From Escherichia phage LQ5: a stretch of 64,000 nt of DNA. Shown piece after piece: positions 4,365 through 15,160 of this stretch; the stretch's first letter is position 1; every line of letters starts with the position of its first letter. A program made the position numbers and the translations under genes. The notes below the pieces were generated by a model. That model saw only the letters and a program-made list of their open reading frames with translations. It was not told the origin of the DNA and did not search any database. The DNA is taken from sequence record OR677401. One strand, given 5' to 3'.

Positions 4365-5693
4365 ATGGAATTAACATCTCGTGGTTTAAAAAGTATTATC
4401 GACAACGAAGCATTGGCTTATGCAATGTATACTGTCGAAAACCGAGCCATTCCAAATATGATTGATGGCTTTAAACCTGTACAACGTTTTGTAGTGGCTC
4501 GTTGTCTTGATATGGCTCGCGGTAATAAAGAAAAATTCCACAAACTGGCTTCTATCGCTGGTGGTGTAGCCGACCTCGGATATCACCACGGTGAAGGTTC
4601 TGCTCAGGAAGCAGGGGCTTTGATGGCTAACACATGGAACAACAACTATCCATTGTTAGACGGTCAAGGTAACTTCGGTTCTCGATTGGTTCAAAAGGCT
4701 GCAGCCTCTCGTTATATTTTTGCTCGTATCGGAAGTAACTTTGCAAAAGTTTATAAGGACACAGAATATGCTCCGGTTCATGCGGATGTTGAACATAAGC
4801 CACCGGCTTTTTATCTGCCTATTATTCCTACTGTTCTTCTTAATGGCGTTTCCGGTATTGCAACTGGTTATGCAACTAATATTCTTCCTCATAGTTTTGA
4901 TTCTGTTAAGAAAGCTGTACTGCAAGTTCTTCAGGAAAAACGAGTAACCAAACCCAAAGTGGCTTATCCTGAATTCCGTGGTGAAGTTGTTGAGATTGAA
5001 CCTGGTAGTTATGAGATTCGTGGAACGTATAAGTTCACATCTCGAACCCAAATGCATATCACGGAAATCCCATACAAATATGACCGTGAAACATATGTGG
5101 CTAAGGTATTAGACCCTCTGGAAGACAAAGGGTACATCACATATGATGATGACTGTGACGAGAACGGTTTTGGCTTCAAGGTTAAGATTCGTAAAGAATA
5201 CGAATTGCCTACCGAAGAAAACAAGAAGCATGAAAAAATCATGAAGGACTTCGGGTTAATCGAACGTCGTTCACAAAACCTGACCGTCATTAATGAAAAA
5301 GGTAAACTTAAGGTTTACGAAGATGCAGTTGAACTGATTCGTGATTTCGTTGAGGTCCGTAAGACCTTTGTACAAAAACGTATTGATGGTAAAATCATCG
5401 AAACCGAAGAAGCTTTTAAACTAGCATTGGCTAAAGCCACATTCATCAAAGATGTTATTGACGGGACTGTAGTTATCCAAGGTAAGACTCGTAAGGTTTT
5501 AACTGAGGAATTGGCTGGTAATAAAGTCTACGGCGAATACGCTGATAAACTGGTTGCAATGAACATTTTCCATATCACATCCGATGAAGCCAAGAAACTG
5601 GCCCTCGAAGCCAAGGCTAAGAAAGAAGAGCATCAATACTGGAAATCTACTGATGTGGTAACTGAGTATGTTAAAGATTTGGAGGCTCTATGA
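4365..5693 (+). CDS. 52: DNA topoisomerase II medium subunit gp52
   Basis: 442 aa, same length as T4 gp52; long identical stretches (KSIIDNEALAYAMYTVENRAIPNMIDGFKPVQRF..., ...GNFGSR.VQKAAASRYIFAR...). Confidence 0.92.
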   Translation: MELTSRGLKSIIDNEALAYAMYTVENRAIPNMIDGFKPVQRFVVARCLDMARGNKEKFHKLASIAGGVADLGYHHGEGSAQEAGALMANTWNNNYPLLDGQGNFGSRLVQKAAASRYIFARIGSNFAKVYKDTEYAPVHADVEHKPPAFYLPIIPTVLLNGVSGIATGYATNILPHSFDSVKKAVLQVLQEKRVTKPKVAYPEFRGEVVEIEPGSYEIRGTYKFTSRTQMHITEIPYKYDRETYVAKVLDPLEDKGYITYDDDCDENGFGFKVKIRKEYELPTEENKKHEKIMKDFGLIERRSQNLTVINEKGKLKVYEDAVELIRDFVEVRKTFVQKRIDGKIIETEEAFKLALAKATFIKDVIDGTVVIQGKTRKVLTEELAGNKVYGEYADKLVAMNIFHITSDEAKKLALEAKAKKEEHQYWKSTDVVTEYVKDLEAL

Positions 5694-5862: not shown

Positions 5863-5900
5863 AGACCTATCAAAACAATAGAGTGAAATGGAGATACAAA

Positions 5901-6536
5901 ATGTCTAAAATTACTTATATCATCAAAGCTTCTGAAGGCGCCCTGAATGAAAAAACCGCTTCAATCTTAGTACATATCATCAAGCATAACTTCATCACTT
6001 CAGGCGAAGTCCGTGAAGCCCTGAGTGAGCAATTTAGTGCTGTGGTAGTTAACTCTAATATCGGTGTATTGATTAAGAAAGGATTCATCGAAAAATCTGG
6101 TGATGGACTAGTGGCTACAGGTGAAGCAATGGACCTAGTTCAAAAAGCTGCCGACCTGTTCGCTTCTGAAAATGCTCCAGAGATGTTGGAAAAACGTAAA
6201 ACGCGTAGTTCACGTGGTGTTACTCCTGAAATGGTAACACTGGCTGATGAAGTTAAAGCTTTATTAGAAGACCGTATCGAGATTCGTGAAATTGCTGAAA
6301 ACCGTAGCAACCTTGAAGTTCGATTCGCTAAACGTACCAACGGTATTCGTCAAATCGAAGTCCGTCGTGATGGAATGATGCGTATCTTCGGTTATAATAT
6401 GACTGATAAAGAAAAACAGGTGTTTACTTCCTTGAATCTTGATGTTAAGATTAAGACTGGTGGTAAGAATACTTATATCGACTTCCAAAACGTATCATCT
6501 GAAGTTATCAAAACCGTAACCAACGCAATTATCTGA
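5901..6536 (+). CDS. motA: MotA middle-transcription activator
   Basis: MSKITYIIKAS...LNEKTA.IL...NSNIGVLIKKG..EKSGDGL..TGEA matches T4 MotA N-terminal domain; track ORF 5883 uses an upstream non-ATG start. Confidence 0.88.
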   Translation: MSKITYIIKASEGALNEKTASILVHIIKHNFITSGEVREALSEQFSAVVVNSNIGVLIKKGFIEKSGDGLVATGEAMDLVQKAADLFASENAPEMLEKRKTRSSRGVTPEMVTLADEVKALLEDRIEIREIAENRSNLEVRFAKRTNGIRQIEVRRDGMMRIFGYNMTDKEKQVFTSLNLDVKIKTGGKNTYIDFQNVSSEVIKTVTNAII

Positions 6537-8284: not shown

Positions 8285-8560
8285 ATGACTAAAATTGAAA
8301 TTGTTTCCGAAATTGCTACTATTGTTTCCATTTTGATTAAAACGGATTGTGAAGACATCATGCAACGTCGTGATGAGTTTATTGCCTTTTTGAATGAGTT
8401 GGGTATTCGTAATGAACATGGAAAGGAACTTAATGGTTTGTCTTATAACAAATTATTTAAGTCATTAACTGAAGATGAACGTGATACTCTTATTGAGCAA
8501 TTTAATGAAGGGTATGAAGATATACACCGCTATCTAATGATGTATACCTCCAATTTTTAA
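8285..8560 (+). CDS. asiA: AsiA anti-sigma-70 factor
   Basis: 91 aa; ...VASILIK...FIAFLNE.G......L....F.K....LTEDE...LIEQFNEG.E...RYL.MYT matches T4 AsiA. Confidence 0.88.
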   Translation: MTKIEIVSEIATIVSILIKTDCEDIMQRRDEFIAFLNELGIRNEHGKELNGLSYNKLFKSLTEDERDTLIEQFNEGYEDIHRYLMMYTSNF

Positions 8561-9210
8561 CGAGTTCGACCTAATGTCCTCCCGGCTTGACCACACATAG
8601 ACGAAAGTCTAGGAAATCCTAAATCCGGTTTGATATCATACCAGTACAACGATATCGAGCCGGCGTAGACGTTATCCAAATTAAAAAACGGGCACGAAAA
8701 CATATACGTGAATTGTGTTTTCTTCTTTGTAGGAAGGAATACAGTTTCGGTACTTGATTCAAAATAGTTCCCGTTAACTCCCGCCATATATTCTACTGAC
8801 GTTTTGTCAATTGGAAACCCTCCCGTGTTTTTTGCGTCTACCGTTTCCGGTAATTTACCCTCGTAAGCAACCATATCCACAAAATAATTCATGTTGGTTG
8901 GTCTAAAAGAATATATTGCTGTGAAGTCTGCGCCTGAAGAAGAATGCACTATTCGGAGCTGCTCGATAGCCGCAATTTTAAATCTATTGTCCTGGTCTTG
9001 TCTAATCATTTCAGTATAAGAGGCATAAGTTGTCTCTTTATAAAAGTTTAGAATATACTCGCCTTTATACCAAACCAATGCCATAAAGAACAATAATATC
9101 ACGACTAGGACCCGGGAAAAAACTACTTTCCCGGAAGAAGTATCTTTAAAAATTCTATCAAGAAGTCCAAAAAGTAGGTCTGATAATGAAAATCCTACTT
9201 TTGGTTCCAT
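8557..9210 (-). CDS. t: holin T
   Basis: 217 aa (T4 T is 218 aa); ...SDLLFG.LDR.FKD...GKV..SRV.V.ILLF.MA.VWY... and ...FAVYSFRP.N.NYFVD..AYEGKLP...; single N-terminal TMD. Confidence 0.88.
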   Translation of the reverse strand: MEPKVGFSLSDLLFGLLDRIFKDTSSGKVVFSRVLVVILLFFMALVWYKGEYILNFYKETTYASYTEMIRQDQDNRFKIAAIEQLRIVHSSSGADFTAIYSFRPTNMNYFVDMVAYEGKLPETVDAKNTGGFPIDKTSVEYMAGVNGNYFESSTETVFLPTKKKTQFTYMFSCPFFNLDNVYAGSISLYWYDIKPDLGFPRLSSMCGQAGRTLGRTR

Positions 9211-9228
9211 ACTTTTCTCCTTTAAAGA

Positions 9229-9236
9229 TATTTATA
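9229..9236 (-). promoter_or_regulatory. late promoter TATAAATA (gp55-dependent) for t
   Basis: reverse complement of tatttata lies ~20 nt upstream of the t start. Confidence 0.6.
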
Positions 9237-9251
9237 GAGCTTATGCACGCA

Positions 9252-10052
9252 CTATAGCCAGGAACCGTAGATAACACCTGTATTATGCCAAGTAGGAGAA
9301 CTTCCAGCAACAGCAGCTCCTGCGCCGCCACCAGCGCCGACTTTTAGAACTTTACCGCCATCAGACCATGCATTCTGACCTGCGCCGCCTGCATCGCCAC
9401 CCTGACCAGAGTGGGCATTTCCGTATTGATAACCACCTCCTGGACCATCCAAAGAAGCTCCGCCACCTGAATATCCACCACCGCCGCCTGGGCCAAATGG
9501 ACGTCCACCACCGCCACCGATATCTTGCCAGTTAGCACCTGAGTGAGGACGATACGCAATGCCACCACCGCCACCACCACCGCCACAGATAACCCCACCA
9601 TTATTAATTCTTAAACGACCACCAATATCATTTACAATACAAGTTCCACCCCATTGGCCGTTGCCATCGCCACCCGAGTGGGTCCATCCACCTTGACCAC
9701 CTCGGCCCCATATATGAACCCCACCACCAATATTCAATTGAACATATTCGTTTGGAGTATCCCCATACATAAAGAACAATGGAACATCACGGGTATAAGA
9801 TACTAATGTGCCTGTAAGATTAAACACAATAGGCGCACTACCGGCTTCAAGGCAACGGTCGCGGAACCATTGCCCATTAAAGTTATGGTCCGCTCCAAGT
9901 GTATGAATAATTTCTCTTGAGCGACCTGCAAATTGACTCATCCAGCAAGGAACACCTAATCTTAATTGACCGGCCGCTTGACTCATCCAGCGCTGACCCG
10001 TTTCATTTACGGCTGAACTTCCAATCCAGCCAGGAACACCAACTACTGCCAT
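9252..10052 (-). CDS. 38: gp38 receptor-recognising adhesin, T2/T6 type (glycine-rich)
   Basis: 266 aa; N-terminus [67 protein letters not shown] matches T2 gp38 as I recall it; C-terminal half is poly-Gly blocks separated by variable segments. Confidence 0.9.
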
Positions 10053-10085
10053 AATTTATCTCCAAAGGGGCAAAGCCCCTTGTTA

Positions 10086-13000
10086 TTAGAATTTAAAGTA
10101 TTTACCAATTTTGCGAGCAATTTTAGTGAAGAAAGGCGTTTTCAATTCTTTAATTTCTTCACTCATTTCCTGAATGGCCCTAATTAAAAGAGCATTCACA
10201 GCGGAGTTAGAAATTGTTAAAATTTCTTCTGGGTTATCCTGAGATCCGACACTAGAAGTGCTAACAGCTTCCGGTAATACTTCTTGCAAATCCTGTGCGA
10301 TAATACCAATCTCATGGCCGATAACTTCGCGGTCAGAAAGAGATTTAACTTTATCATAGGTTTTAACTTTGAGTTTATTTACCTTATCTACCGCATTCTC
10401 TTCGTAGTCTTCAACATTAATTTTCAGACGACGGTCAGAACGAATATAAACGTCGTTACAATATACAGAAGCACTAGATGTGAAATCACCATTTGCAGAC
10501 CATTCGTACCAGCCGCCTTTGTTCATATGCATCATTACGGTAGCGTTACCACCGCCAGCATGAACACCCATTGACGCAAGATAATCAGCACCCCAATGAA
10601 CTGCTTTCCAAATTGAATATGCTTGGTTTTGTGAATCCTGACAATCTAAGAGAATACCAGCCGGGCGATCTCGCCAGTCTACCCATGCACCACCAGAAAC
10701 CTCACCGCGAATAATTCCTTGATCTGCGGCATAAGGAACACGTCCGTCAAGTTTAAACATCGCGCCCATGAAGCGATGTTCAATTGGACCACCATAGTTA
10801 TTGCGAATATGTAAAATACCCTCATCTGTAGCCCAGATAACAGCCTTTTCTGCATCGCTATCATCTCTAAACCAGATGTGGCGAGCGCCAGCAGAGTTTT
10901 TGATGGTTATTCCGGAAGGTCCATGCACAGTAAAATTGCCACCAACATCAAAATTCAAACTGTTATCTGTCCTGCGTTCAGTATAGAAGTGATAACCTTT
11001 GGAATCTTTGACTTCCATCACTGCCGCGCGACCAACTTCTGAATTTCCCCAATTATTAATAGAGAATCGTTCAGAGCTATTATTCATCTGATTTAGGTAT
11101 AATGTACCATCAGTGGATGTTTCGCCAAAGAAACGAGTTTTAATTGCACCTGTCGCTAAAGTACGTTCAGTGGAAAAATGAGCGCCTTGACTATCTTCTA
11201 ACTGGATGATGTTATCACGAGCATTATTACTATCACCCAAATGGTTAAATTTAAAATAATCTTGTGATCCTAAATGTCCGGCGTCAAAAGTCATCACGCC
11301 TTTCATGTTAATACCACCATCGACCAGAACGTTATCCGGAAAGTTAACTGTACCATCAGCGTTAAATCTTGATGTATGGCCTTGTGAACCATCTTCTTTG
11401 ATATGGTGTAAAACAAAAGTCCCGGAATTAATTTCAGTACCTAAAGACCAAACTGCTTTACCTTGAAGGTATTTTTGCTTAACAATCGGATAATATTTGT
11501 TTACAGCATCATCATCGATTTCCTGGAAAATAGGAGCTGCTTGAACATACTGAATATCATAACCACCAGCGCCTGCGCCATGACCAACAAATTTAATATA
11601 GCCGTTCGCAGTGATCGTATTGTATCTTGACTGTAAATCTGGAATACTTACTTTACCGGTATCTAAAGCCAAACTAAACGGGCGAAGCGGACCAATATCA
11701 CCAGTTTTACCTTCGCCAAAGGCAGTTGGAATAATATGAAGACTTCCTTCTGAACGACGGAAAATAGCGGCGTAATCGTCGTTCCAAATTCTAAGAGCAT
11801 TGACCGCATTACCAGCAATAGTGCCGGAGACGTTAACTTCCTGGCCGACATTTATACTTTCGTTTACACCCAAAGTTCCATTTAAATGGCTTTGAATAGC
11901 ACCTGAAGACAGTCGTTGATAATATTGAATCCAGCTAGTGGCATCAGATATTTCCATTACGTTTTTACGGTCGCCATCAACATTAGTAAAGGTATTACCC
12001 CAAACGGCGATAGTCATATTATCAACTGAACTACTTCCGGTCGTGTTACCTTTGAACAACAGGGTAGATGCATTGTTGCGGCCATCAATATTAACCGAAC
12101 CGCCAACAACATCAATATTACCCGGAGTAACTAACAAACCACCAGCGGTGTTAACGTTTGTAGTACCCTTACCACGGAAATAGTGGTGATAATTACCGCC
12201 TTGATAATAACCTAAAAGAGTTTGTCCGTCACCTACCGCGTTATTATCATGATAAGTGACAACCGTCGCCAAAGCATAGTTTTCCGACGGAGGAGTGGTT
12301 AAATCGGTGCCGTTTACAGAATACCCCATAACCATTTTTCTAAGACTGGTGGTTTCTGCAGGGCCGTACAGGAAAGTTCTCGTGCCGTTATTAACGCTGA
12401 AATAATATCCATCCTGGTGCCATTTTAACCCGGTGTCATTATCGCCAAGAGCAATTGAACCTTTACCTAAGGCTGAATATGTCATAGGCCCTGATTCCAT
12501 ACCTACTGCAATCGAATGTCCAGCTTGAAAACCGCCAGAATAAGCAAAAGACAACATATAATCAGTAGGGGTTGAACCAGAATACCAACTGATACCGTTA
12601 TTTTCACAAATTTCATGGAGCATTGCAGACGCCGGGTCGGTACGTACAACGCGCAAATAGTTTTTATCCGTGGCAGAATTATTATTTGCTAATGAAGATA
12701 TATCATAATCGCCAGCTTTCTTACCATTTGTAATAACTTTATCGGTCAGAATTTGTGGGGATGAAATAGATTTCCATGCCGATACTTCAGGTGAAGTAAA
12801 TTGACCATTGCCTGAAAATGCATAAGTGCTTTCGCTACCAGCGGCATAATCTTGAACACGGATATTAACTAGCTGAGTTGTCAACCCTTCATTATTAGGA
12901 GAAAAGATAATACCACGTTCACGTGATGCGCCGTCAAAGAATCTCAAATGAGAAGTTGAAGCACTCTTAGAAATAAGTTCTCCGCCTTCAGTCATTATCT

Positions 13001-13307
13001 GACCTGCAGCAATAATATCACGAGTTACGCGAGCAATACCGGTTAAATTAAAATCACCTGTTTGGGTAAAGGTACCATTTAGGGTATAATCGCCGGTTTG
13101 GGTGTAATTTCCTTTATGGATAACATTACCGTCGATATTACCGCCTTTAGCAAAACCGAGGTCGATAATAGCTCCAGTATCGTCTTTAGTAAAAAGTAAA
13201 CGGTCCTTTAAGTTAATAGCCAGTTCGCCTTCAGCCAACTGGGCCGGTGCTGGACGTACACCGGCTACTTTACTTCTTTTAAATTGGATTTGCTTTAAAG
13301 TAGCCAT
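10086..13307 (-). CDS. 37: gp37 long tail fibre distal subunit
   Basis: 1073 aa; N-terminus MATLKQIQFKRSK.AG.RPA...LAEGELAINLKDR..FTKDD.G.IIDLGFAKGG matches T4 gp37; C-terminal ~120 aa begin SDRRLKINVEDYEE (auto-processing chaperone-like motif). Confidence 0.9.
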   Translation of the reverse strand: MATLKQIQFKRSKVAGVRPAPAQLAEGELAINLKDRLLFTKDDTGAIIDLGFAKGGNIDGNVIHKGNYTQTGDYTLNGTFTQTGDFNLTGIARVTRDIIAAGQIMTEGGELISKSASTSHLRFFDGASRERGIIFSPNNEGLTTQLVNIRVQDYAAGSESTYAFSGNGQFTSPEVSAWKSISSPQILTDKVITNGKKAGDYDISSLANNNSATDKNYLRVVRTDPASAMLHEICENNGISWYSGSTPTDYMLSFAYSGGFQAGHSIAVGMESGPMTYSALGKGSIALGDNDTGLKWHQDGYYFSVNNGTRTFLYGPAETTSLRKMVMGYSVNGTDLTTPPSENYALATVVTYHDNNAVGDGQTLLGYYQGGNYHHYFRGKGTTNVNTAGGLLVTPGNIDVVGGSVNIDGRNNASTLLFKGNTTGSSSVDNMTIAVWGNTFTNVDGDRKNVMEISDATSWIQYYQRLSSGAIQSHLNGTLGVNESINVGQEVNVSGTIAGNAVNALRIWNDDYAAIFRRSEGSLHIIPTAFGEGKTGDIGPLRPFSLALDTGKVSIPDLQSRYNTITANGYIKFVGHGAGAGGYDIQYVQAAPIFQEIDDDAVNKYYPIVKQKYLQGKAVWSLGTEINSGTFVLHHIKEDGSQGHTSRFNADGTVNFPDNVLVDGGINMKGVMTFDAGHLGSQDYFKFNHLGDSNNARDNIIQLEDSQGAHFSTERTLATGAIKTRFFGETSTDGTLYLNQMNNSSERFSINNWGNSEVGRAAVMEVKDSKGYHFYTERRTDNSLNFDVGGNFTVHGPSGITIKNSAGARHIWFRDDSDAEKAVIWATDEGILHIRNNYGGPIEHRFMGAMFKLDGRVPYAADQGIIRGEVSGGAWVDWRDRPAGILLDCQDSQNQAYSIWKAVHWGADYLASMGVHAGGGNATVMMHMNKGGWYEWSANGDFTSSASVYCNDVYIRSDRRLKINVEDYEENAVDKVNKLKVKTYDKVKSLSDREVIGHEIGIIAQDLQEVLPEAVSTSSVGSQDNPEEILTISNSAVNALLIRAIQEMSEEIKELKTPFFTKIARKIGKYFKF

Positions 13308-13315
13308 AATGCCTC

Positions 13316-13963
13316 TTAATAATAACCAAAATCTTGAATAGAATCTTTAATAACAATCTGGTCAAAACGAGGAACGTGTCCTGCGTCAGAGGCCGGATTC
13401 AGCGAAATAAAGTTAGGAGCAGCAAGTACTCCGGTCATTGTTTGCATGTTAGTATTATTTATTTGGACCTGTTTTGCGTTATCTACTAACGATAATCCTA
13501 CTTGAGCTTTAGTAGGGGTGTTGCCTGGGCTGAATACACGACCTGATTCGTCATAAACTTGACGGAATAATGAATCACCCATTACGGTAAGTCGTTTAGC
13601 ACCAACTGCTGTATTCGGGTCAAATATTATAAATGGAGTACCGTTTTCCGTTTCATATCCAAAAGCGCCTTTAATACGGAAAGAAGCCGTGAACGGGGCT
13701 CCGCCAGTTCTTGCTCCTAATTTAATACCATATCCATTGGTATCATTAAAGGTCAGGCCTTTTTCAAAATACACGTTATTCTTATAATTACCACCATTTG
13801 CTTTTGAAACAAAGTCGTTATCAGTGGCTTGCGGTTTATTATATTCGGTATAAACTTTATATGTTTTGTAAAGAAGGTCATTTGATACAGGCGTTAAGGG
13901 AAAATTACCTTGGTGCCATAATACCGAACCTCCTGCTGTAGAACCTAATTTTAAATCTGCCAT
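13316..13963 (-). CDS. 36: gp36 long tail fibre hinge protein
   Basis: 215 aa; MADLK.GST.GGSV.WHQGNFPL... and C-terminal HVPRFDQIVIKDS.QDFGYY match T4 gp36. Confidence 0.85.
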   Translation of the reverse strand: MADLKLGSTAGGSVLWHQGNFPLTPVSNDLLYKTYKVYTEYNKPQATDNDFVSKANGGNYKNNVYFEKGLTFNDTNGYGIKLGARTGGAPFTASFRIKGAFGYETENGTPFIIFDPNTAVGAKRLTVMGDSLFRQVYDESGRVFSPGNTPTKAQVGLSLVDNAKQVQINNTNMQTMTGVLAAPNFISLNPASDAGHVPRFDQIVIKDSIQDFGYY

Positions 13964-14010: not shown

Positions 14011-14038
14011 GAAAACGAAAAAGGAACCCGAAGGTTCC
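14011..14038 (-). terminator. stem-loop/terminator after gene 35 (minus strand)
   Basis: GGAACC-UUCG-GGUUCC on the minus strand followed by U-rich run. Confidence 0.5.
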
Positions 14039-15160
14039 TTAATATTTTTCTCTAAATTCAGCGACCCAAACCTGGCCAGGTTTAGTGCCTGTTTTATCAT
14101 ATAGCTGGGCTATGGTAGTACCCATATTTTTAGTTTCCGTACCAAAGTTCATACGAATACCGTTAACACCAAATTCAGCAGGTTTTGGCTGAGGTTCTGA
14201 TTCAGATATCTCACCGAACATAACATTTCGAACTCCGCCTTGGCCAGCCGAAGCGGTTTTTCTGGCATAAAGGGTAAAGTCTGTAGTACCTTCAGGAACC
14301 ATTACAACCCGTTCAAATGTCATCCATGCACCGGCAGGAACGTTGGAAGGAACGTCCATATTAACTGTCCCGGTTAAAGCACCTGAGGCATTAAAAAATC
14401 TAACAGACATCTGAGAGGTCCCGACGTCTTTTAAAGCTTGGTCGCGCATTAATTGAAACTTAAGGTAAAAGAATTCACCTGGTTTCATATTATAATCTGT
14501 TAATGGGGTAGTAGGAGATTCGGTAGGAAATCGCTTAATTTCATCTCCCTCATTGCTTAGATAAGTGCTTTCGTCTTCAACAATTCTGACAGGATATCCT
14601 GTACCACCGACATCACTGATATCGTCAAATACTACTTCTAATGGAGTAGAAACATCTTCGACCAATACCCCATCATTATAAAGCACATGTTCCATTACTA
14701 TGGCATTCCTTCCTGAAACATAAAATGCAGAATAAGACGGCTCAAAACGGTCTATCAACCACTTAGTCGGGAATGCGGTACTTCCTGCCGCACGGAACCA
14801 ATCGATAAGTTTTTGTGAAGCATTTAATCTACCAGAAGATACTAAACAAACTATTCTATTGGCCGGTATAGAATTTATATACGTTATAAAAGCTTCAGAA
14901 ATAACATCAAAATCTTTTGTAAAACTATAAGTTTTGTTAGCCACTATTTTGGGTTCAGCACTAACATCGATTTCTATAAGGTTTAATCCATTTTGAAAAT
15001 TCTGGGAACCGAAGTTCCCATCTTGAAATTTAACATATGCTTTTGTGGTAGACTTAGTACAACTACCAGCTATACTAAGTTTATACCTTACAGCATTGTT
15101 TTCAGATAATGTAGGAACCTGGACATATCCTTGTCCAAATTCTGCCATAAATCTTTCCAT
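14039..15160 (-). CDS. 35: gp35 long tail fibre hinge connector
   Basis: 373 aa (T4 gp35 is 372 aa); position between 34 and 36. Confidence 0.8.
   Translation of the reverse strand: MERFMAEFGQGYVQVPTLSENNAVRYKLSIAGSCTKSTTKAYVKFQDGNFGSQNFQNGLNLIEIDVSAEPKIVANKTYSFTKDFDVISEAFITYINSIPANRIVCLVSSGRLNASQKLIDWFRAAGSTAFPTKWLIDRFEPSYSAFYVSGRNAIVMEHVLYNDGVLVEDVSTPLEVVFDDISDVGGTGYPVRIVEDESTYLSNEGDEIKRFPTESPTTPLTDYNMKPGEFFYLKFQLMRDQALKDVGTSQMSVRFFNASGALTGTVNMDVPSNVPAGAWMTFERVVMVPEGTTDFTLYARKTASAGQGGVRNVMFGEISESEPQPKPAEFGVNGIRMNFGTETKNMGTTIAQLYDKTGTKPGQVWVAEFREKY

Follow-up and report, generated by a model that had tools for sequence, protein, structure and literature searches.

A T-even-type long tail fiber tip module in Escherichia phage LQ5, with a predicted OmpA-binding gp38 adhesin

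Genes at the tail fiber locus

Phage LQ5 is Dhakavirus-like. In the window, the whole 64,000-nucleotide stretch of its DNA that was analyzed, open reading frames (ORFs) together with Pfam and PHROG matches place genes 36, 37, 38 and t in that order on the minus strand, as in T2, T6, S16, RB32 and LHE83. Gene 38 sits between gene 37, which it follows directly, and the holin gene t.

13316..13963, minus strand: gene 36, distal hinge connector (PHROG 1425, E 3.4e-58)
10086-13307, minus strand: gene 37, 1073 aa (PHROG 1699 "long tail fiber protein distal subunit", E 0)
9252..10052, minus strand: gene 38, receptor-recognizing adhesin, 266 aa, 26.7 kDa (ORF with Pfam GP38/Gp38_N)
8557..9210, minus strand: gene t, holin, downstream context (Pfam Phage_holin_T, E 3.6e-66)

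The interval 9252-10560, on which an earlier sequence-only reading had focused, consists of gp38, a 33-nucleotide spacer and the final 158 gp37 codons; the remainder of gp37 reaches 13307. Both gp37 and gp38 are residue-for-residue identical to proteins of one NCBI phage genome. A tail fiber tip module of this kind is an ordinary, well-known feature of T-even-like coliphages. Its architecture, mechanism and receptor logic have all been established previously in the literature, and it raises no new question.

No tRNA genes were found with ARAGORN, nothing in the whole window matched Rfam at gathering thresholds, and no NCBIfam model matched gp37 or gp38. Predicted sigma-70 promoters (19 compared to 15.3) and terminators (8 compared to 5.0) are not above shuffled expectation here, and T4 late genes would in any case call for a model other than a sigma-70 scan. 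Short ORFs at 9344-9601 (minus strand), 9368-9535, 9654-9806 and 10284-10574 (all plus strand) lie inside or overlap the module genes in other frames or on the plus strand. These were rejected as candidates and are read as by-products of stop-poor, GGN-rich sequence because they fall wholly inside genes with strong family support.

Domain structure of the gp38 adhesin

Almost all of gp38 is covered by two Pfam families. It matches Gp38_N (PF21721) at aa 1-42 (E 2.9e-20, 72.4 bits against a cut-off of 25) and GP38 (PF05268) at aa 47-266 (E 6.9e-63, profile positions 1-218 of 218, 212.8 bits against a cut-off of 25), and T2 gp38, used as a control, matches the same pair. It also matches PHROG 2056, "tail fiber protein; host specificity" (E 1.9e-106). 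The crystal structure of the S16 adhesin (6F45_D) aligns along the full length of gp38 (E 5e-52, 52% identity), and the solved structure of PP01 gp38 (9V85) aligns to its receptor-binding part (E 7e-69). Given these E-values, chance is out of the question as the source of the family matches. Over all 266 residues, identity to LHE83 gp213 is 96.2%, compared to 92% for RB32, 85% for Ox2 and 48% for T2. The polyglycine-II sandwich fold predicted for gp38 is implied only by homology to 6F45_D and 9V85; a single-sequence AlphaFold model was of too low confidence to use (pLDDT 34.5, pTM 0.20).

Glycine makes up 27.8% of gp38 (74/266), and 61 of the 74 glycines lie within aa 110-266, where the blocks include G8 (157-164), G5RPFG (179-187) and G5 (189-193). 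The protein can be divided as follows, with motif and segment boundaries set by the author from the alignment on the glycine-rich motif (GRM) and hypervariable segment (HVS) scheme of PMC3157838.

9927..10052, minus strand: N-terminal attachment domain, aa 1-42, T6/RB32 subtype (Pfam Gp38_N; W9, W22, W37)
9708..9926, minus strand: linker / beta-helix region, aa 43-115 (73/73 identical to LHE83; recombination junction at its 5′ edge)
9309..9707, minus strand: specificity domain, aa 116-248 (five glycine-rich motifs, alternating with hypervariable segments)
9651..9686, minus strand: HVS1 core, aa 123-134 (LHE83 12/12, RB32 11/12, Ox2 9/12; T2, T6 and S16 2/12 each)
9519..9560, minus strand: HVS2, aa 165-178 (LHE83, RB32 and Ox2 13/14; T2 1/14, T6 2/14, S16 0/14)
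9402..9491, minus strand: HVS3, aa 188-217 (LHE83 30/30, RB32 27/30, Ox2 22/30; T2, T6 and S16 8-13/30)
9333..9377, minus strand: HVS4, aa 226-240 (LHE83 15/15, RB32 and Ox2 14/15; T2, T6 and S16 1-3/15)

The attachment domain is identical to those of RB32 and IME540 (42/42) and nearly so to those of T6 and Ox2 (41/42), compared to 33/42 for LHE83 and 28/42 for T2. Its tryptophans W9, W22 and W37 are invariant in all eight aligned adhesins, and in the S16 structure such residues plug into the gp37 tip (PMC7917993). These identities bear out the conserved N-terminal attachment domain that the sequence-only reading had described. That reading was silent on three points: the T6/RB32 attachment subtype, which is not T2-type in the strict sense, the OmpA-type receptor and the mosaic module.

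In the C-terminal half, five glycine-rich motifs (aa 116-122, 157-164, 179-187, 218-225 and 241-248), conserved in eight phages, alternate with four hypervariable segments. Aligning gp38 with the T2, T6, Ox2 and S16 adhesins, as had been suggested earlier, allowed these segments to be assigned. Across T2, T6 and S16, the motifs are 50-100% conserved whereas the segments are 0-43% identical, in agreement with the earlier description of glycine-rich blocks separating variable segments.

Predicted receptor

OmpA is predicted as the gp38 receptor because the four hypervariable segments match those of LHE83, RB32 and Ox2 (73-100% identity) and not those of T2, T6 and S16 (0-43%). HVS1-4 are thus shared with phages that depend on OmpA experimentally, which would place gp38 in the OmpA-specific group (Ox2/RB32/LHE83; "type 1", Lutz et al. 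2025). In LHE83, an anti-gp213 serum blocks adsorption, and an ompA frameshift, knockout and complementation identify OmpA as the receptor (PMC10987938). RB32 needs OmpA and is affected by LPS composition, and its specificity moves with the hypervariable region (PMC3157838). More generally, gp38 phylogeny predicts the receptor, and its clades track receptor use (PMC12032242).

The loop reported to contact OmpA contains one difference from LHE83. HVS2 of LQ5 carries R-P-H-S-G-A at aa 168-173, with P169 in place of the V found in LHE83; the remaining differences from LHE83 include 9/42 attachment-domain residues. Type 1 OmpA binders have an R-V-H-S-G-A contact stretch, numbered 165-170, with V at the second position (PMC12032242); the two stretches were compared by motif letters. 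The same proline is common to the OmpA users RB32 and Ox2.

The module could be as described and yet use a primary receptor other than OmpA, such as Tsx, OmpF, OmpC, FadL, LamB or LPS alone. Between them, the adhesins of this family recognize many receptors, and a point mutation can change which one is used (PMC3157838, PMC12892980); for Ox2 gp38, single substitutions are reported to shift receptor specificity in the literature summarized in PMC12892980. The 96% match to LHE83 is therefore strong evidence of specificity rather than proof. Adsorption of LHE83 to BL21 lacking ompA is lowered by only ~50% (PMC10987938), which makes it likely that LPS or a second receptor contributes there; RB32 is LPS-sensitive as well, and P169 departs from LHE83. 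Set against this, the segments agree with three independent OmpA-dependent phages and differ from adhesins that bind Tsx (T6), OmpF/FadL (T2) and OmpC (S16), P169 itself occurs in two OmpA users, and receptor use follows gp38 clades. A receptor other than OmpA thus appears unlikely.

OmpA remains the predicted receptor, probably with a contribution of the LPS core to binding. This is a receptor call from sequence alone: the phage should need OmpA, probably together with LPS core. Such a prediction points to loss of ompA as the expected route to resistance and to complementary phages for cocktails.

The C-terminal chaperone domain of gp37

Full-length gp37 has a mass of 116.7 kDa and is predicted to be divided near its C-terminus. 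The cleavage site was placed from the S16/fPS alignment in PMC7917993.

10440..13307, minus strand: predicted mature distal half-fiber subunit, aa 1-956, 103.4 kDa, ending ...VYCNDVYIR956
10089..10439, minus strand: intramolecular chaperone, aa 957-1073, 13.3 kDa, Peptidase_S74, predicted to be auto-released (Pfam PF13884)
10422..10439, minus strand: SDRRLK, with predicted Ser957 nucleophile and Lys962 general base; predicted scissile bond R956-S957 (motif conservation)

The sequence SDRRLKINVEDYE begins at gp37 aa 957 (window 10437-10439), from which 117 residues run to the stop, close to the "last ~120 residues" of the earlier estimate. Peptidase_S74 (PF13884) matches aa 957-1015 with profile position 1 on S957 (E 1.3e-14, 54.6 bits compared to a cut-off of 22). 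Among the 21 PHROG fiber and tailspike families matched by gp37, 18 align across the C-terminal tail, which also aligns to the S16 gp37 construct 6F45_A across SDRR[IL]K and to the MYRF autoprocessing domain 7DC3. As controls, T2 gp37 carries S74 at aa 1243-1300 of 1341, and T4 gp37 is without it. The tail is thus a Peptidase_S74 intramolecular chaperone with an S-x4-K dyad, a domain that T2 has and T4 does not, and the resemblance to auto-cleaving chaperones pointed out from the sequence holds.

In the motif S-D-x-R-x-K (Ser i, Lys i+5), the S, D, R and K are invariant in eight phages, including T2, T6, S16, Ox2, RB32, LHE83 and IME540. The preceding DVYIR is conserved in LHE83, RB32, Ox2, IME540, T2 and T6, while S16 has DLNVS, i.e. 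DLNVS|SDRRIK. The catalytic roles of Ser957 and Lys962 are predicted, being taken from published S74-family work. Cleavage of T2 and T6 gp37 followed by gp38 capping is described in PMC3157838 with reference to Drexler et al. 1986, and in S16 the chaperone domain cleaves itself off and so uncovers the surface on which gp38 docks, according to PMC7917993, which cites Dunne et al. 2018. The link drawn earlier to reported C-terminal processing of T2 gp37 before gp38 attaches is therefore correct (PMC3157838, PMC7917993).

Could the S74-like tail instead be an inactive relic, either retained or cut by a host or phage protease, with gp38 binding elsewhere on the fiber? The structural or biochemical demonstrations of autocleavage all come from homologues (S16, K1F endosialidase, T5 pb1), and Drexler 1986 showed that T2 gp37 is processed, not by what mechanism. 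However, the dyad Ser and Lys and the motif D and R are invariant in the eight phages even where the flanking fiber falls to 27% identity, and the S74 match lies well above its cut-off. In addition, the chaperone-domain and gp38 N-terminal subtypes travel together across recombination junctions, as would be expected if cleavage creates the docking site, and in line with the lock-and-key pairing that PMC3157838 describes. We consider a relic very improbable, and an active, self-releasing domain is the preferred reading.

The released 13-kDa fragment of the T6/RB32/Ox2 subtype has a 16-residue, strongly amphipathic end with a charge of +5 (PFFTKIARKIGKYFKF). Conservation of this tail reaches at least 90% in 224 phage records, and the T2, S16 and LHE83 subtypes lack it. 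A second role for it after cleavage, such as membrane association, fiber-assembly timing or interaction with gp38 or gp57A, is conceivable but has a low probability. Its conservation could just as well come from the g37-g38 boundary acting as a recombination homology block.

Mosaic structure and the intergenic spacer

From sequence comparison, the module is a recombinant, in which the attachment and chaperone domains are T6/RB32-type and the specificity domain is LHE83-type. The junction lies near gp38 residue 45, where DNA identity to LHE83 rises from 68% to 97% across ~9913. At the protein level, identity to LHE83 is 73/73 in the linker (aa 43-115) compared to 33/42 in the attachment domain before it. 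On the other side of the gene boundary, the chaperone-domain DNA over 10363-10214 is 100% identical to RB32 and IME540. This provides a clean natural example of a pairing rule: the attachment domain of gp38 has to stay with the gp37 tip and chaperone domain that match it, and the domain bearing the loops is exchanged freely. The rule is useful for engineering T-even host range.

10053..10085, minus strand: g37-g38 spacer, 33 nt, with the hairpin AAGGGGC-UUU-GCCCCUU followed by the gene 38 Shine-Dalgarno GGAG (MFE -11 kcal/mol)

When each spacer is folded separately, a hairpin occurs at the same place in seven other T-even phages, but its stem sequence differs. A MAFFT alignment of the spacers is out of structural register, and RNAalifold run on it showed no covariation of use (covariation term +0.47).

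A model for the fiber tip

It is very likely that this locus of a Dhakavirus-like T-even phage encodes a distal long tail fiber tip module of the T2/T6/S16 kind, in which a cleaved gp37 is capped by an OmpA-binding gp38. For LQ5 itself the analysis shows which domains are present, that their motifs are conserved, how the segments resemble adhesins whose specificity is known, the order of the genes and the mosaic structure; from homologues we infer cleavage, gp38 stoichiometry, virion location and the receptor. The sequence contains nothing that contradicts the model.

Under the cleavage-then-capping scheme (PMC7917993, PMC3157838), the 1073-residue gp37 would trimerize with the aid of its own Peptidase_S74 chaperone (aa 957-1073). 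Folding of the trimer would be followed by a cut at the R956-S957 bond, made by Ser957 with Lys962 acting as base, and the 13-kDa chaperone fragment would depart, exposing a flat tip that ends in ...NDVYIR956. A single gp38 would then dock on this tip through its N-terminal domain (aa 1-42; W9, W22, W37). Its glycine-rich motifs may form a polyglycine-II sandwich that carries the four hypervariable loops at the very end of the fiber. There they would bind OmpA in the outer membrane, and binding would probably depend to some extent on LPS core.

There is a negligible chance that gp38 is instead a T4 gp38-like assembly chaperone and not a virion component: the JS98, Bp7, E33 and SQ17 homologues carry database names such as "distal long tail fiber assembly catalyst", which favor this but are inherited from the T4 gene name, BLASTP gives no similarity to T4 gp38 (E 0.99), T4 gp38 matches neither Pfam GP38 nor Gp38_N, and homologues sit at the fiber tip and bind receptors (solved complexes, antibody blocking). 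The T4-type reading was rejected on these grounds, and the sequence-only identification of an adhesin, now backed by the Pfam domains common to T2 gp38 and by homology to the S16 and PP01 adhesins, stands.

Comparison with known systems

T4 has the same locus, gene order and homologous gp37 N-terminal and shaft regions as LQ5. However, T4 gp37 provides the receptor-binding tip itself (Collar and Phage_fiber domains) and lacks S74, and T4 gp38 is an unrelated chaperone. Beyond the T-even phages, S74 domains of K1F endosialidase, T5 pb1 and MYRF share with LQ5 gp37 a Pfam match that starts at the nucleophile Ser and an S-x4-K dyad, and MYRF 7DC3 aligns to the conserved G-[IV]-IAQ-[DE]-[LV]..[VI]LPEAV helix of LQ5. 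In LQ5 the domain sits on a T-even gp37 fiber rather than a tailspike, and the cut end is predicted to become the docking site for a separate adhesin.

T2 resembles LQ5 in the Pfam domains of both proteins, the S74 at the gp37 C-terminus and the reported gp37 processing. Its gp38 differs (48% identity), with the T2 attachment subtype (28/42), other loops and OmpF/FadL as receptors, and its 1341-residue gp37 has a 99-residue chaperone domain without the C-terminal tail of LQ5. The S16 gp37-gp38 complex (PDB 6F45, polyglycine-II sandwich, OmpC) shares architecture, SDRR[IL]K site and gene order, and the auto-released domain of S16 and the predicted-released domain of LQ5 are similar in size (~113-117 aa). 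S16 differs in its unrelated hypervariable loops (0-43%), its receptor OmpC, DLNVS instead of DVYIR, and a chaperone domain without the cationic amphipathic end.

RB32 and Ox2 are OmpA-dependent Tequatrovirus phages of the classical Henning/Krisch host-range system, with attachment domains identical or 41/42 to that of LQ5. RB32 also shares with LQ5 the chaperone tail TPFFTKIARKI..YFKF. The gp38 C-terminal end is GPRV in these phages and GSWL in LQ5. LQ5 gp36, holin and the gp37 shaft backbone have 33-60% DNA identity to RB32, low because LQ5 is a Dhakavirus and not a Tequatrovirus. The Dhakavirus LHE83, by comparison, has the same genus-level backbone, and its OmpA-binding gp213 matches LQ5 gp38 in HVS1, HVS3 and HVS4 (identical), HVS2 (13/14) and the C-terminal ...GSWL. 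It differs in its attachment domain (33/42), in V169 rather than P169, and in a gp37 whose C-terminal 250 aa are 27% identical, with a fiber tip and chaperone domain of a different subtype.

Organization of the Locus

The region 8557-13963 contains four closely packed minus-strand genes, which ORF calling places in the canonical T-even order:

13316-13963, minus strand: gene 36, 215 aa (PHROG 1425)
10086-13307, minus strand: gene 37, 1073 aa (PHROG 1699, "long tail fiber protein distal subunit", E 0)
9252-10052, minus strand: gene 38, 266 aa (Pfam GP38 and Gp38_N)
8557-9210, minus strand: holin gene t, 217 aa (Phage_holin_T)

Upstream of gene 36 lie genes for proteins of 373 and 1349 aa, with the position and size expected for genes 35 and 34. 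The ORFs at 8285-8560 and 4365-5693 are positional counterparts of the annotated asiA and topoisomerase gene 52 of RB32 and IME540, and the ORF at 5883-6536 occupies the motA position of RB32.

At 9200-9800 the G+C content rises to 51-54%, compared to ~38-40% in the surroundings, and GC skew is as low as -0.36. Both result from the glycine content of gp38, written as a run of GGN codons on the minus strand, and the rise is not foreign DNA. The stop-poor GGN stretch also produces spurious ORFs overlapping gene 38, at 9344-9601 (minus strand), 9368-9535 (plus strand) and 9654-9806 (plus strand).

The Adhesin gp38

The product of gene 38 is an adhesin, as the sequence-only reading had proposed, and not an assembly chaperone of the T4 type. 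It matches Pfam GP38 over the whole profile (E 6.9e-63) as well as Gp38_N (E 2.9e-20), and T2 gp38, used as a control, yields the same two domains. The crystallised S16 adhesin (6F45_D) aligns to its full length (E 5e-52), and the PP01 gp38 structure 9V85 (PMC12892980) aligns to its receptor-binding part (E 7e-69); the fold is a putative assignment by homology to these solved structures. T4 gp38 is unrelated to the window protein (BLASTP E 0.99) and has no match in Pfam.

An alignment of eight adhesins (window, LHE83, RB32, Ox2, IME540, T2, T6 and S16) bears out the domain layout that had been read from the sequence. In the conserved N-terminal attachment domain, W9, W22 and W37 are invariant. 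Glycine makes up 27.8% of gp38, and five glycine-rich motifs are conserved (aa 116-122, 157-164, 179-187, 218-225 and 241-248) with variable segments in between, a design described for this adhesin type by Trojet et al. (PMC3157838).

Public labels for gp38 homologues vary among "distal long tail fiber assembly catalyst", "tail protein and peptidase" and "hypothetical protein" (records of JS98, Bp7, E33, SQ17, ESh25, SG1, ABTNLS3 and others). The first of these is a misleading inheritance from T4 gp38, an unrelated protein.

Predicted Receptor

Comparison with Ox2, T2, T6 and S16, a check the earlier reading had suggested, allowed four hypervariable segments (HVS1-4) to be assigned. The nearest adhesin to gp38 is gp213 of LHE83, at 96.2% identity, followed by those of RB32 and fFiEco06 (92%) and Ox2 (85%). 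The hypervariable segments closely resemble those of OmpA users, and are only 0-43% identical to those of T2, T6 and S16.

Residues of gp38 hypervariable segments matched in three OmpA-using phages
Segment: LHE83, RB32, Ox2
HVS1: 12/12, 11/12, 9/12
HVS2: 13/14, 13/14, 13/14
HVS3: 30/30, 27/30, 22/30
HVS4: 15/15, 14/15, 14/15

LHE83 uses OmpA: its adsorption is blocked by anti-gp213 serum, an ompA frameshift is present in a host resistant to it, and ompA knockout and complementation alter adsorption, although only by ~50% in BL21 (PMC10987938). RB32 also needs OmpA, LPS composition matters, and its specificity moves with a 400-bp hypervariable region (PMC3157838). Lutz et al. found that the receptor can be predicted from gp38 phylogeny, and identified R-V-H-S-G-A as a contact stretch of the "type 1" OmpA binders, which have a broader host range (PMC12032242). 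At aa 168-173 the window protein, like those of RB32 and Ox2, reads R-P-H-S-G-A, and it is tentatively assigned to "type 1". Because its hypervariable segments and nearest adhesins match those of OmpA users, and because gp38 phylogeny tracks the receptor, OmpA is quite likely to be the receptor, probably with a contribution from the LPS core. We infer that this phage depends on OmpA.

The C-Terminal Chaperone and Other Features of gp37

The second part of the earlier proposal, that the last ~120 residues of gp37 resemble a self-processing chaperone, is also supported. Pfam Peptidase_S74 matches gp37 aa 957-1015 (E 1.3e-14), and SDRRLKINVEDYE, the motif quoted in that reading, which begins at aa 957 (10437-10439), starts at position 1 of the profile, with 117 residues remaining to the stop. 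Since the family matches and the profile start coincide with the positions first proposed, the gp37-gp38 observation is confirmed and chance is excluded; in these sequence-level tests both it and its interpretation were correct. The four fixed residues of S-D-x-R-x-K do not vary among the 8 phages, even where the adjoining fibre sequence is only 27% identical. T2 gp37, as a control, carries S74 at aa 1243-1300 of 1341, while T4 gp37 lacks it and has Collar and Phage_fiber domains instead. The MYRF autoprocessing domain (7DC3) aligns with the gp37 tail via a G-[IV]-IAQ-[DE]...LPEAV helix. Ser957 and Lys962 have putative catalytic roles here, as known for the S74 family.

S16 gp37 ends in a 113-residue intramolecular chaperone, which cleaves itself off between the paired serines of DLNVS^SDRRIKK and so uncovers the surface on which gp38 docks; DVYIR^SD has been proposed as the equivalent site in coliphage-type fibres (PMC7917993). 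For T2 and T6, processing of gp37 with subsequent capping by gp38 is reported in PMC3157838, which cites Drexler et al. 1986. The five residues preceding the serine are DVYIR in 7/7 coliphages and DLNVS in S16. By homology, gp37 is predicted to be cut at R956/S957, leaving a mature 103.4-kDa subunit once a 13.3-kDa fragment is released. We infer that gp37 is autocleaved in the LQ5 phage and that its virion carries gp38.

Two further regions of gp37 were noted:

11673-11981, minus strand: Gp34_trimer-like region, gp37 aa 443-545
10089-10136, minus strand: cationic amphipathic tail PFFTKIARKIGKYFKF, gp37 aa 1058-1073, at the end of the predicted released fragment

The first, in the middle of gp37, is similar to the trimerisation domain at the C-terminus of gp34, the proximal fibre protein. 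It scores 23.6 bits against Pfam Gp34_trimer, below the cut-off of 27, and aa 414-557 align with PDB 4UXE and 5NXF (E ~1e-10). The same domain occurs in T4 and T2 gp37, and looks like an old duplication within the fibre. The second has a charge of +5 and a helical hydrophobic moment of 0.67, and only 35 of 5000 shuffles equal its amphipathicity. Across 224 phage records (T6, RB32, Ox2, PST, RB14 and others) its conservation is 90% or more, but the T2, S16 and LHE83 subtypes lack it.

Intergenic Elements

Three spacers contain candidate regulatory elements:

10053-10085, minus strand: hairpin AAGGGGC-UUU-GCCCCUU (-11 kcal/mol), gene 37 stop to gene 38 start
9211-9251, minus strand: gene 38-t spacer, containing TATAAATA, the T4 late-promoter consensus
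14021-14040, minus strand: hairpin AAGGAACC-UUCG-GGUUCCUU, a perfect 8-bp palindrome followed by a T-rich run

The first hairpin is stable and immediately precedes the Shine-Dalgarno sequence of gene 38, GGAG. Hairpins with different stems, frequently with UUCG or UACG tetraloops, occupy the same position in LHE83, RB32, Ox2, IME540, T2, S16 and T4. It is probably the known T-even intercistronic type, with a putative role in mRNA stability or as a processing barrier. In the second spacer, TATAAATA stands 17 nt from the holin ATG and is followed by a ribosome-binding site, AAAGGAG; the holin gene may thus have its own late promoter. The third element lies in the spacer from the start of gene 36 (13963) to 14039, where the 373-aa ORF upstream stops, and was scored as terminator-like on both strands.

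Mosaic Structure and Relation to Known Modules

The closest relatives of the 5.5-kb region by nucleotide comparison are Dhakavirus genomes: IME540 (91.5% identity, 98% covered) and MX01 (91.5%, 87% covered). DNA identity to IME540, LHE83 and RB32 in 150-nt bins resolves a mosaic. The Dhakavirus backbone, 97-100% identical to IME540 and/or LHE83, accounts for gp36, the holin and a large part of the gp37 shaft. A second block runs from the distal third of gp37 through the chaperone domain into gene 38, of which it takes in the first ~140 nt; it matches IME540 at 97-100% and the Tequatrovirus RB32 at 89-100%, compared to only 33-68% for LHE83. The rest of gene 38, beginning at ~9913, is closest to LHE83 (93-99%, versus 59-89% for RB32 and IME540). 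A gp37 patch at ~10514-10813 is only ~70% identical to IME540 and RB32, and closest to MX01 (92.9%). As a consequence of this patchwork, gp37 stands alone in its cluster at 90% identity. The gp38 cluster at the same threshold has 132 members.

Within gp38 the switch comes near residue 45: the attachment domain before it is of the RB32 type (42/42 residues, versus 33/42 for LHE83), and the part after it is of the LHE83 type (73/73 at aa 43-115). The attachment domain thus travels with its matching gp37 tip and chaperone domain, and the loop-bearing domain is exchanged.

These results add to the initial reading an OmpA-type receptor class, a T6/RB32-type attachment subtype, an exact predicted cut site and a recombination map. 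Nothing here departs from established knowledge: gp37 and gp38 both occur residue for residue in one NCBI phage sequence, and experiments have characterised an adhesin 96% identical to gp38. The pattern is that of the lock-and-key pairing and modular shuffling which earlier work described at this locus (PMC3157838). Exchange of the gp38 N-terminus relieved an incompatibility between T2 and PP01 (PMC12892980), a result with which the arrangement of attachment and loop domains in LQ5 is consistent.
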